Below are positions 6,636 to 8,343 of a stretch of DNA of 64,000 nucleotides, in pieces. The notes under the pieces were generated by a model. The model was not told the DNA's origin. It saw only the letters and a program-made list of their open reading frames with translations, and did not search any database. Both the position numbers and the translations under genes were made by a program. Position 1 is the first letter of the stretch. Every line of letters begins with the position of its first letter. The stretch lies in the NCBI RefSeq assembly GCF_048403405.1, contig NZ_CP183129.1; one strand, 5' to 3'. This DNA is from Escherichia coli. GTDB taxonomy: Bacteria; Pseudomonadota; Gammaproteobacteria; Enterobacterales; Enterobacteriaceae.

Positions 6636-6954
6636 GATTTTATTCCATGTTGATTGATTTGTTACAAATATATATTACCTAATAAAATAGACTATCAAAA
6701 AACGCTCATTTATTTAGACCCTATCTTTAATTTGAGTGTATGAGCGCACAATAGCCAGGGTGGTTTGAGTATCCTGGTAATTCAGAAAAGTAAACTCTTT
6801 GAGAAAGACGAGCAGAACGCCTGAAAATATGCCTTTCCCTTCAGGTTTGTCTGTGGATGCCACTTAATGATTTGAAAGGGCAAGCTACCATCAGGCTGTT
6901 TGCAAAACTCAGGAGGCAAGCAATGAGGAAACAACTTTCGTTGAAGTGGGGGGA

Positions 6955-6987
6955 GTTAAAGTCACCTGCTATGCAGGTGACTTTAAC
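6955..6987. other. Palindrome 16 nt downstream of the fadL stop
   Basis: GTTAAAGTCACCTGC-tat-GCAGGTGACTTTAAC (15-bp arms); no clear T-run on either side, so terminator function is uncertain. Confidence 0.4.
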
Positions 6988-7002
6988 TAAGCTAACGCGT
7001 TA

Positions 7003-8343
7003 TCAGAACGCGTAGTTAAAGTTAGTACCGAACAGCCAGGCTTTACCTTCAGACTCGAAGGAATAAGCTGCCGGTCCTTCGCCTTCAGTAAACTTCACTT
7101 TCTGACCATGCATATAAGATGCGCCAACGTCAATGGATGCATCTTCATTAAATGCGTAGGTTAACCCAGCACTTAACCACAAGCGATCCTGGTCAGGAAT
7201 GGAAATAGAACGTTTATCTGCCGGAACTGGGCTATCGTCATAGGCGATACCGGTACGGAAGGTCCAGTTTTTATCGTAATAGTAGGTTGTGCCCAACGCG
7301 ATACGATATGCGTCACGGAATCCTTCATCTTTATAGAACAGAGTCTGGCCACTATCGCCTTTCGCTTTCAACTCCTGGAACTGGCTCCAACTGGTATAGG
7401 CCATGCTGTAGTGAATTGCCCACTGCGGCGCAACACGGTTATAACCAGAAATCTCCCACATCTCAGGCAGGTTGAGCGTCAGGGAGCCATTTTGTGTTGC
7501 ACCCATCGTGCCATACGGTAAGCCCATGCTACCCAAAATATTGTTCAGATTTGGGTTAATGGAACTTTTGTAATCCCCTTCGAAGTCGATTTTAACTTCT
7601 GAACGATATGTCAGGCCCCAACGGTTATCTTTATCCAGTTCATAAAGAATACCCGCGTTCCAGCCGAAGCCCCATTCGTCACCTTTCAGATGGGCAATTT
7701 GAGAGTCCGGAGTATTAATACCATTGGTTAATGAAGCGGGTACACCCCGGGCAATCAACTGCTGAGACAACATAGGCCCCAGCGAACCGGCGTAACGCTC
7801 AATTTTTGCTTTGGCGTAAACCGCATCAAAACCAAGACCAAAACTCCAGCTATTGTTAAGGCGATAAGCCCCGCTAAGGTTAAGGTTGATTGTCTGCAGA
7901 TCGGTTTTACCGCCATAGATACCAGCAGCGTAGTTGTCGGTAAATTCCGTAGCCAGGCCGTAGTTGGAAGTTATTGACGCTCCCCAACCAAACTGATCGT
8001 TGATAGGCGCGACAAAGTGCAGGTTAGGTACCCACGCTGTCGGTGCGATATTTTTAGCATTTGCACTCTGACCGGTTAAATCAGAATGTCCGGTAATATC
8101 TACATCCGGATCAATATAAACCGCACCCGCAGAAAATGTCGGGCGGTCAAACATGGTAATCAATGCGGGGTTACGGCTAACGTTACCTGCATCATCGGCA
8201 ATTGCGCCTTCCCCTGAATAAGCCCGGCCCAGGCCAGAGGAAGAAAATTCGTTTAACTGAAAGCCTGCCGACCAGGCCTGGGTGGAGATAAGTGCCACTG
8301 CGACTGCGAGAGCAGACTTTGTAAACAGGGTTTTCTGGCTCAT
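7003..8343 (-). CDS. fadL: Long-chain fatty acid outer-membrane transporter FadL
   Basis: 446-aa product beginning [28 protein letters not shown] and ending NFNYAF; the track ORF is extended two codons upstream. Confidence 0.95.

Follow-up and report, generated by a model that had tools for sequence, protein, structure and literature searches.

Organization of the fadL–yfdF spacer

The window, as we call the whole 64,000-nt stretch of DNA analysed here, is a segment of the E. coli chromosome that carries, in this order, mlaA (4409–5164, + strand), a yfdF-like gene (5346–6635, − strand), fadL (7003–8349, − strand), yfcZ and fadI. The yfdF homologue, also known as icaT, is AT-rich and internally repetitive, and no Pfam domain was found in its 429-aa product even at E ≤ 1. 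The RefSeq product of fadL has 446 aa, with a start 6 nt downstream of that of the longest open reading frame (ORF). A small hairpin on the fadL strand (6991–7017, arms ACGCGTT and AACGCGT, 5-nt loop) straddles the fadL stop codons, TGA at 7003–7005 and TAA at 7000–7002. It is the second and lesser of two hairpins at the end of this gene, the larger being the palindrome described below.

On the opposite (+) strand, antisense to the end of fadL and within the fadL–yfdF (icaT) spacer, the original prediction placed a 30-codon ORF that could encode a small protein or could simply reflect a conserved structured element. The ORF is present at 6923–7015 (ATG at 6923, TAG at 7013–7015); its translation agrees with the 30-aa product given, it overlaps the 3′ end of fadL by 13 nt and, as described, it crosses a palindrome, which proved to be perfect. 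Several details required correction. Of the span originally assigned, 6914–7015, the end is right and the start is not, position 6914 falling within the Shine–Dalgarno (SD)-like motif. That motif, the hexamer AGGAGG, occupies 6911–6916 and lies 6 nt rather than 3 nt upstream of the ATG. The palindrome arms, given as 15 bp, are in fact 16 nt long (6954–6969 and 6973–6988).

The 30-codon ORF is the 3′ portion of a 52-codon ORF opening with an ATG at 6857, and its reading frame is set by a length-polymorphic run of G (G6 at 6948–6953 on the + strand, C6 in the fadL sense). Read in the fadL sense, the SD-like hexamer is CCUCCU and forms part of a C/U-rich trailer; the AGGAGG and the G-run on the + strand are simply the complements of this trailer, with its CCUCCU and its C-run. 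An AGGAGG followed by an ATG at a distance of 4–9 nt occurs four times in the window, compared with 1.9 ± 1.2 times in shuffled sequences, and 8 of 100 shuffles reach four; the SD–ATG pair is therefore not beyond chance. Upstream of the ORF, the + strand offers only weak promoter-like matches.

A palindrome at the right edge of the icaT island

In the fadL sense (− strand) the palindrome (6954–6988) reads as an RNA hairpin with 16-bp arms and a 3-nt loop (6970–6972), for which we calculate a folding energy of −24.8 kcal/mol (z = −8.5) in the window and −22.3 kcal/mol in K-12. It is far beyond what chance would produce, there being no shuffle with any match. The junction of the window type (AACTAAGCT), which is the same as the sequence of strains that lack the island described below, extends the stem to 16 bp, whereas strains of the K-12 type carry four clustered changes at this junction (ATCCAGGCG) and have a stem of 13 bp with a short extension.

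Conservation was assessed in 13 sequences, namely the window and 12 island-bearing genomes sampled across the range of identity. Across these aligned spacers the arms of the 13-bp core (6957–6969 and 6973–6985) are invariant, with none of 26 positions variable compared with 47 of 343 elsewhere (~14%; P about 0.02). We regard this as modest evidence, and arm-to-arm correction within a palindrome could yield such invariance without selection. The ORF's own codons display the reverse pattern. A comparison of the conservation of the ORF with that of the palindrome had been suggested as a check on the original prediction, and it separates the two: the 13-nt core arms do not vary, while the frame of the ORF is unstable.

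The palindrome is a single-copy element. The window holds no second copy even with up to three mismatches allowed, and E. coli genomes carry it at about one place each, opposite-strand self-matches aside. An Rfam scan of 6300–7400 at E ≤ 10 gave only chance-level matches to eukaryotic snoRNA and miRNA families (best E = 1.7), and a search for the core in one genome per species (GTDB r220) gave only a chance match in one Lachnospiraceae genome. The E. coli representative in GTDB r220 has no core match either and is presumably island-less. A dispersed repeat of the REP/BIME or ERIC type, or a known Rfam RNA, was ruled out in view of the single copy and the lack of a match to any curated model; the palindrome is not REP-like because it is single-copy, belongs to no Rfam family and has a core that is absent from the representatives of other species. 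Readings of the palindrome as a FadR operator or as an MxiE box were also dropped, as it bears no resemblance to either consensus. What we take to be the likely MxiE box lies at 6692–6708, about 250 nt from the palindrome.

The position of the palindrome becomes clearer on comparison with genomes that lack yfdF. The gene lies on an island of ~1.78 kb (5209–6988, ± 5 nt) that is absent from about 1,150–1,225 of 5,426 E. coli genomes, including ATCC 25922. In these island-less strains the convergent genes mlaA and fadL share a terminator, AAAAAAGGTGAGT-loop-ACTCACCTTTTTT, which in ATCC 25922 has a canonical score on the fadL-sense strand. In the window this ancestral intrinsic terminator, AAAAAAGGTGAGT-loop-ACTCACCTTTTTT at 5171–5208, adjoins mlaA only. 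Since it stays with mlaA in island-bearing strains, fadL has lost it. Homology between island-less sequences and the window restarts at TAAGCTAACGCG, directly past the right arm of the palindrome, which makes the palindrome the final feature of the island, whose right edge coincides with that arm. Published work presents IcaT as a substrate of the type III secretion apparatus of Shigella that was acquired horizontally and is activated by MxiE/IpgC; its gene is reported to be inserted beside fadL, to be common in phylogroups A, B1, D and E and to be largely missing from B2 (PMC9241512).

A location at the boundary of an acquired island, together with the perfect dyad symmetry, raises the question of whether the palindrome matters mainly as DNA, either as the relic of a terminal structure or of a recombination site belonging to the mobile element that brought in icaT, or as the operator of a dimeric protein, any role in RNA being incidental. 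The reported low similarity of IcaT to transposases (PMC9241512) would agree with this, as would the occurrence among strains of both orientations of the loop, which needs an inversion event at the level of DNA. Against it, the palindrome is single-copy in the window and, chance match aside, none of the other species scanned has its core in the representative genome; the left end of the island has no matching repeat, nor did we find between the two island ends any convincing matching repeats of the kind that mark a mobile element; and the Pfam search of YfdF gave neither a transposase nor a recombinase domain at the same permissive threshold. The RNA 3′ end mapped at this hairpin in K-12 (see below) is, moreover, a sufficient present-day function. 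An origin as a DNA element is compatible with that explanation and does not replace it, and we consider a mainly DNA-level role unlikely.

The loop itself varies among the sampled strains, reading TAT in nine and ATA in four, with both states found on each of two flanking haplotypes. About 960 genomes show a second, opposite-strand match to the window query, as expected of an inverted loop. This distribution points to a DNA-level inversion inside the perfect palindrome, which may have been recurrent or spread by recombination. Quasipalindromes and hairpins are reportedly hotspots for template switching during replication, as in the work of Ripley and Lovett on E. coli. The present locus resembles such hotspots in its short perfect palindrome, in a loop that alternates between TAT and ATA across strains and in the slippage-prone homopolymer that adjoins it. 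It differs in that the variation here is known from population polymorphism alone, and its distribution could also be the outcome of recombination between haplotypes.

The 3′ end of fadL mRNA

In K-12 the dominant 'primary' 3′ end of fadL mRNA was placed by Term-seq at 2,462,694 (+) (Adams et al. 2021, PMC7815308, Supplementary file 1), under only one of the three growth conditions of that table. The 3′ end has thus already been published, though it is never individually discussed there. It lies 2 nt past the 13-bp core of the hairpin (2,462,664–2,462,692 in K-12), with ...GCAGGTGACTTTAAC immediately before the end and TCCCCCACTT immediately after it, and by alignment its homologue in the window strain would be position 6955 (− strand).

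The same study compared DirectRNA-seq with and without bicyclomycin and reported a Rho termination region that peaks at 2,462,709 (+), with a Rho score of 5.38 (p = 3.9e-11; PMC7815308, Supplementary file 2); the score is taken over 800-nt windows and the peak position is approximate. This peak is 15 nt beyond the fadL 3′ end, at ~6940 in window coordinates, inside the C-rich tract whose complement provides the G-run and the 'SD' of the ORF. The tract, which we propose as the Rho-loading and termination region (6880–6953, − strand, CUCCCCCCACUUCAACG...CCUCCUGAG), follows directly 3′ of the hairpin and is poor in G: the first 50 nt past the hairpin contain 18 C and 7 G, and the first 80 nt contain 26 C and 14 G. 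In an RNA-seq compendium fadL and yfdF are not co-transcribed, with a correlation of 0.20 (PMC10392735).

A very stable hairpin with the mRNA 3′ end exactly at its base could in principle be a non-canonical intrinsic terminator of fadL at which RNA polymerase stops without Rho. The hairpin does share with intrinsic terminators, for instance the one between mlaA and fadL in island-less E. coli, a position directly after the stop codon and a coincidence with the mRNA 3′ end. Unlike them, it has a stem that is A/T-rich at its base, it lacks a U-tract and termination in the region is sensitive to Rho. A consensus scan for intrinsic terminators over 6400–7400 returned no site, the same scan being able to detect the ancestral terminator in ATCC 25922. 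The sequence past the stem is CUCCCCCC, with CUCCCCCCACUUC following it in the fadL sense; neither strand carries a U-tract, and the G+C-rich hairpin followed by a U-tract that typifies an intrinsic terminator is not what is found here. Inhibition of Rho raises read-through 5.4-fold, and stem-loops without U have been interpreted as protective structures formed after termination (Dar & Sorek, PMC6061677). Termination at the hairpin independently of Rho is, in our estimate, highly improbable.

The features at the end of fadL correspond closely to those described for Rho-dependent transcripts by Dar & Sorek (2018, PMC6061677), whose steady-state 3′ ends carry a stable, U-less stem-loop that protects against PNPase and RNase II and whose rut region lies directly downstream. 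The fadL locus has a stable stem without a U-rich stretch and C-rich, G-poor sequence downstream of it; for K-12 the published data add a 3′ end right after the stem and Rho dependence beyond it, and both extend to the window by homology. Like protective 3′ stem-loops at other Rho-dependent terminators, the fadL hairpin is stable, lacks a U-tract and has the mRNA 3′ end at its base, and the C-rich, G-poor region that follows it directly shows bicyclomycin-sensitive read-through. Compared with typical examples its stem is exceptional in length and perfection (16 bp in the window, 13 bp in most strains), and it arrived on the border of a horizontally acquired island, where it replaced an ancestral intrinsic terminator. 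The element appears to be of a known kind, a protective 3′ stem-loop at a Rho-dependent terminator.

We propose that the palindrome acts at the level of RNA, on the minus (fadL-sense) strand, its role in the window strain following from homology to K-12. Transcription of fadL would pass the stop codon and the palindrome and be stopped by Rho in the C-rich, G-poor tract just past the hairpin, a tract that would serve as the rut site; 3′-to-5′ exonucleases would then trim the RNA back to the stem-loop. The stem-loop would remain as the steady-state 3′ end of fadL mRNA and insulate fadL from the downstream yfdF/icaT. This arrangement would have arisen since the icaT island came to separate fadL from its ancestral terminator, if the direction of insertion is as reported (PMC9241512). 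We hold it to be probable, with good confidence, that the palindrome is the 3′-end stem-loop of fadL mRNA at a Rho-dependent terminator, that the ORF is a by-product and that the arrangement stems from the icaT island. Of the two options offered by the original prediction, the structured element is accordingly the one that gains support, from the invariant stem arms and from the mapping of the K-12 fadL mRNA 3′ end to the hairpin base.

Allelic variation of the open reading frame

Alleles of the ORF were counted over 5,426 complete E. coli genomes and aligned in the conservation sample. A three-way alignment locates the critical difference in the G-run, which is G6 in the window, G7 in the closest relative, TUM14771 (99.8% identical), and G5 in K-12. 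Twelve of the 13 sampled sequences, the window among them, keep the ATG, and in 10 of these 12 the same SD–ATG ORF has 11 codons; it has 22 codons in TUM14771 and 30 in the window alone. In the remaining strain, GPEC1446, the start codon is AAG. The 11-codon form, MR[K/T][Q/L]LS[L/V]K[W/C]G[S/N] (MRTLLSVKWGS in K-12), ends at a TAA within the left arm of the palindrome.

The same picture holds across the species. The window allele (91 nt, G6, 30 codons) is present as a full-length exact match in 5 of the 5,426 genomes; the band of matches at or above 99% to the window query (44) also holds ~40 genomes with opposite-strand matches to the palindrome only. The G7 allele, with 22 codons, occurs in eight genomes, including EAEC 042. 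Two G5 alleles, both with 11 codons, are far more frequent: that of K-12, 88 nt long with the loop TAT, is carried by about 2,800 genomes and the O157 type, 91 nt long with the loop ATA, by about 570. The 11-codon version of the ORF is found in about 3,400 or more genomes. It is slippage of the G-run by +1, an allele restricted to a handful of strains, that gives the ORF its 30 codons.

Selection on a peptide is not evident from the substitutions. All six changes in the first 11 codons (M>K, K/T, Q/L, L/V, W/C and S/N) are non-synonymous, and the first 33 nt of the ORF have 7–8 variable columns of about 33, compared with 13.7% over the 13 aligned spacers as a whole. Neither the synonymous excess nor the retention of the start that would mark purifying selection is seen. 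The upstream ATG at 6857, from which the 52-codon ORF would begin, is ATA in 11 of 13 strains.

If any peptide were made, the 11-codon form would be the more widespread candidate, as a regulatory or leader-type peptide whose translation would unfold the hairpin in a + strand RNA. About 79% or more of island-bearing genomes share the SD, the ATG and an 11-codon frame that stops at the TAA of the stem. This conservation, however, equals the background identity of a young spacer confined to E. coli, the substitutions are those described above and GPEC1446 has no start codon. Furthermore, the G6 and G7 alleles break the frame across a whole clade with no evident consequence, neither the promoter scan nor the K-12 datasets searched show any sign of a + strand transcript, and the mini-ORF is not among the annotated small proteins of K-12. 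We give a leader-type peptide very little credence.

The length variation also bears on a different possibility, namely that palindrome and homopolymer together act as a mutational switch in the 3′ trailer of fadL. Inversion of the loop (TAT/ATA) and slippage between C5, C6 and C7 in the fadL sense would alter the length of the hairpin or the loading of Rho and so tune the stability of fadL mRNA or read-through into icaT. Were this true, it would create heritable, reversible variation within populations in fadL mRNA or in the normally silent gene for a type III secretion substrate, icaT; we think it most improbable. A second homopolymer, at 6757–6766, is likewise polymorphic in length.

Small proteins of E. 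coli (≤50 aa) have reportedly been verified by initiation ribosome profiling (Weaver et al. 2019; Stringer et al. 2021). The ORF resembles these in its SD-like motif, its ATG, its short length and its intergenic and antisense position; it differs in a frame that is not conserved, in being unannotated and in substitutions that are all non-synonymous. Frame and length are not kept among carriers of the locus, where the G5/G6/G7 run shifts the frame, and homologues or a family were found neither in Pfam, nor in a collection of 15 billion proteins, nor in the one-genome-per-species scan of the core. Specifically, neither the 30-aa nor the 52-aa peptide matches Pfam at E ≤ 1 or has an exact record in that collection, and no CDS is annotated at the site in K-12 or in the other RefSeq genomes among the matches listed.

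That a + strand transcript running antisense to the 3′ end of fadL yields a real 30-aa protein has in its favour the strong SD-like AGGAGG at a good 6-nt spacing and the presence of SD and ATG in nearly all sampled island-bearing strains, but we judge it next to impossible given a pairing of SD and ATG within chance, a frame restricted to 5 of 5,426 genomes and truncated or shifted by the G5 and G7 alleles, DNA confined to E. coli, promoter-like matches upstream that are weak at best and K-12 datasets that, where searched, list neither equivalent + strand 3′ ends nor novel transcripts. The protein-coding reading is rejected on these sequence grounds, because of the frame instability at the G-run, the non-synonymous changes and the want of any annotation, Pfam match or peptide record. 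The small-protein option of the original prediction falls with it, the frame being so rare, the start lost in one strain, the site unannotated and every substitution non-synonymous. As far as the sequences allow us to judge, the ORF at 6923–7015 is a chance antisense ORF with a length dependent on the G-run, and no conserved gene.

The palindrome and the ORF are ordinary biology, with no new small protein, and the analysis removes a false candidate of that class. It also illustrates how candidates of this kind come about: a C/U-rich Rho-loading region has a complement rich in G and A, which readily mimics a Shine–Dalgarno sequence. The result leaves current understanding unchanged and is useful for annotation of the fadL 3′ UTR. 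It provides a specific E. coli example of how a core gene, fadL, was parted from the intrinsic terminator it once had by an island acquired horizontally, that of icaT/yfdF; a hairpin at the island edge, together with Rho, would now set the end of the fadL mRNA.

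Loop orientation and stem junction of the palindrome

The three-nucleotide loop (6970-6972) of the palindrome at the fadL mRNA 3' end (6954-6988, minus strand) reads TAT in nine of the 13 sampled strains, namely the window, K-12 and seven more, and ATA, the reverse complement of TAT, in the other four. Within this sample, each loop is found on both of two flanking haplotypes. A palindrome match on the opposite strand, consistent with an inverted loop, was obtained in approximately 960 of 4,282 genomes. The sequences suggest that the loop has been inverted within the perfect palindrome, through template switching, or that the inverted form has spread via recombination.

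A second site of variation lies at the stem junction, where the window-type sequence AACTAAGCT and the K-12-type sequence ATCCAGGCG are separated by four differences clustered at 6986-6993. These differences lengthen the perfect stem from 13 bp (K-12-type) to 16 bp (window-type), and strains lacking the yfdF/icaT island share an identical window-type junction, AACTAAGCT. Judged by their sequence, the four differences look like a single multi-base event rather than independent SNPs.

Variation in yfdF/icaT and its upstream region

The yfdF/icaT homologue (5346-6635, minus strand) encodes 429 amino acids in the window compared to 352 in K-12, and its length in RefSeq differs again among other strains; the annotation of strain E10 lists it as a pseudogene carrying an internal stop. 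Tandem repeats of 6 and 12 nt (TCAATA, which encodes DIDIDI...; repeats at 6036-6446) are found within the gene, as are duplicated modules spaced by ~231-234 nt, and the gene therefore varies through repeat expansion.

In front of yfdF/icaT, at a distance of 57 nt from its start, the sequence TGAGCGTTTTTTGATAG (6692-6708, minus strand) resembles the MxiE-box consensus (GTATCGTTTTTTTANAG). It is invariant in all 13 sampled strains. An MxiE box has been validated (PMC9241512), and the candidate TGAGCGTTTTTTGATAG is probably that same box. On the minus strand, the MxiE-box-like sequence is preceded at a distance of ~50-75 nt by a second G-rich run (6757-6766), which shows strong length and sequence polymorphism across E. 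coli, reading GGGTGGTTTG in the window, GGGGGGGGG in K-12 and having further lengths in others.

Published RNA ends and Rho-dependent termination

An RNA 3' end has been mapped upstream of the fadL ORF at K-12 position 2,461,244 (+), corresponding to window ~8405 on the minus strand, with a relative position of -56 and in two growth conditions (Adams et al. 2021, PMC7815308, Supplementary file 3). This 3' end is a hint that transcription stops prematurely in the fadL 5' UTR or that a short leader RNA is made there. Supplementary file 2 of the same study (PMC7815308) places a Rho termination region inside yfdF, in antisense orientation, at K-12 position 2,463,820 (minus strand; Rho score 5.9), corresponding to roughly 5800-5900 on the plus strand of the window. 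This is consistent with Rho stopping spurious antisense transcripts that arise within the AT-rich, foreign DNA, well short of the small ORF (6923-7015).
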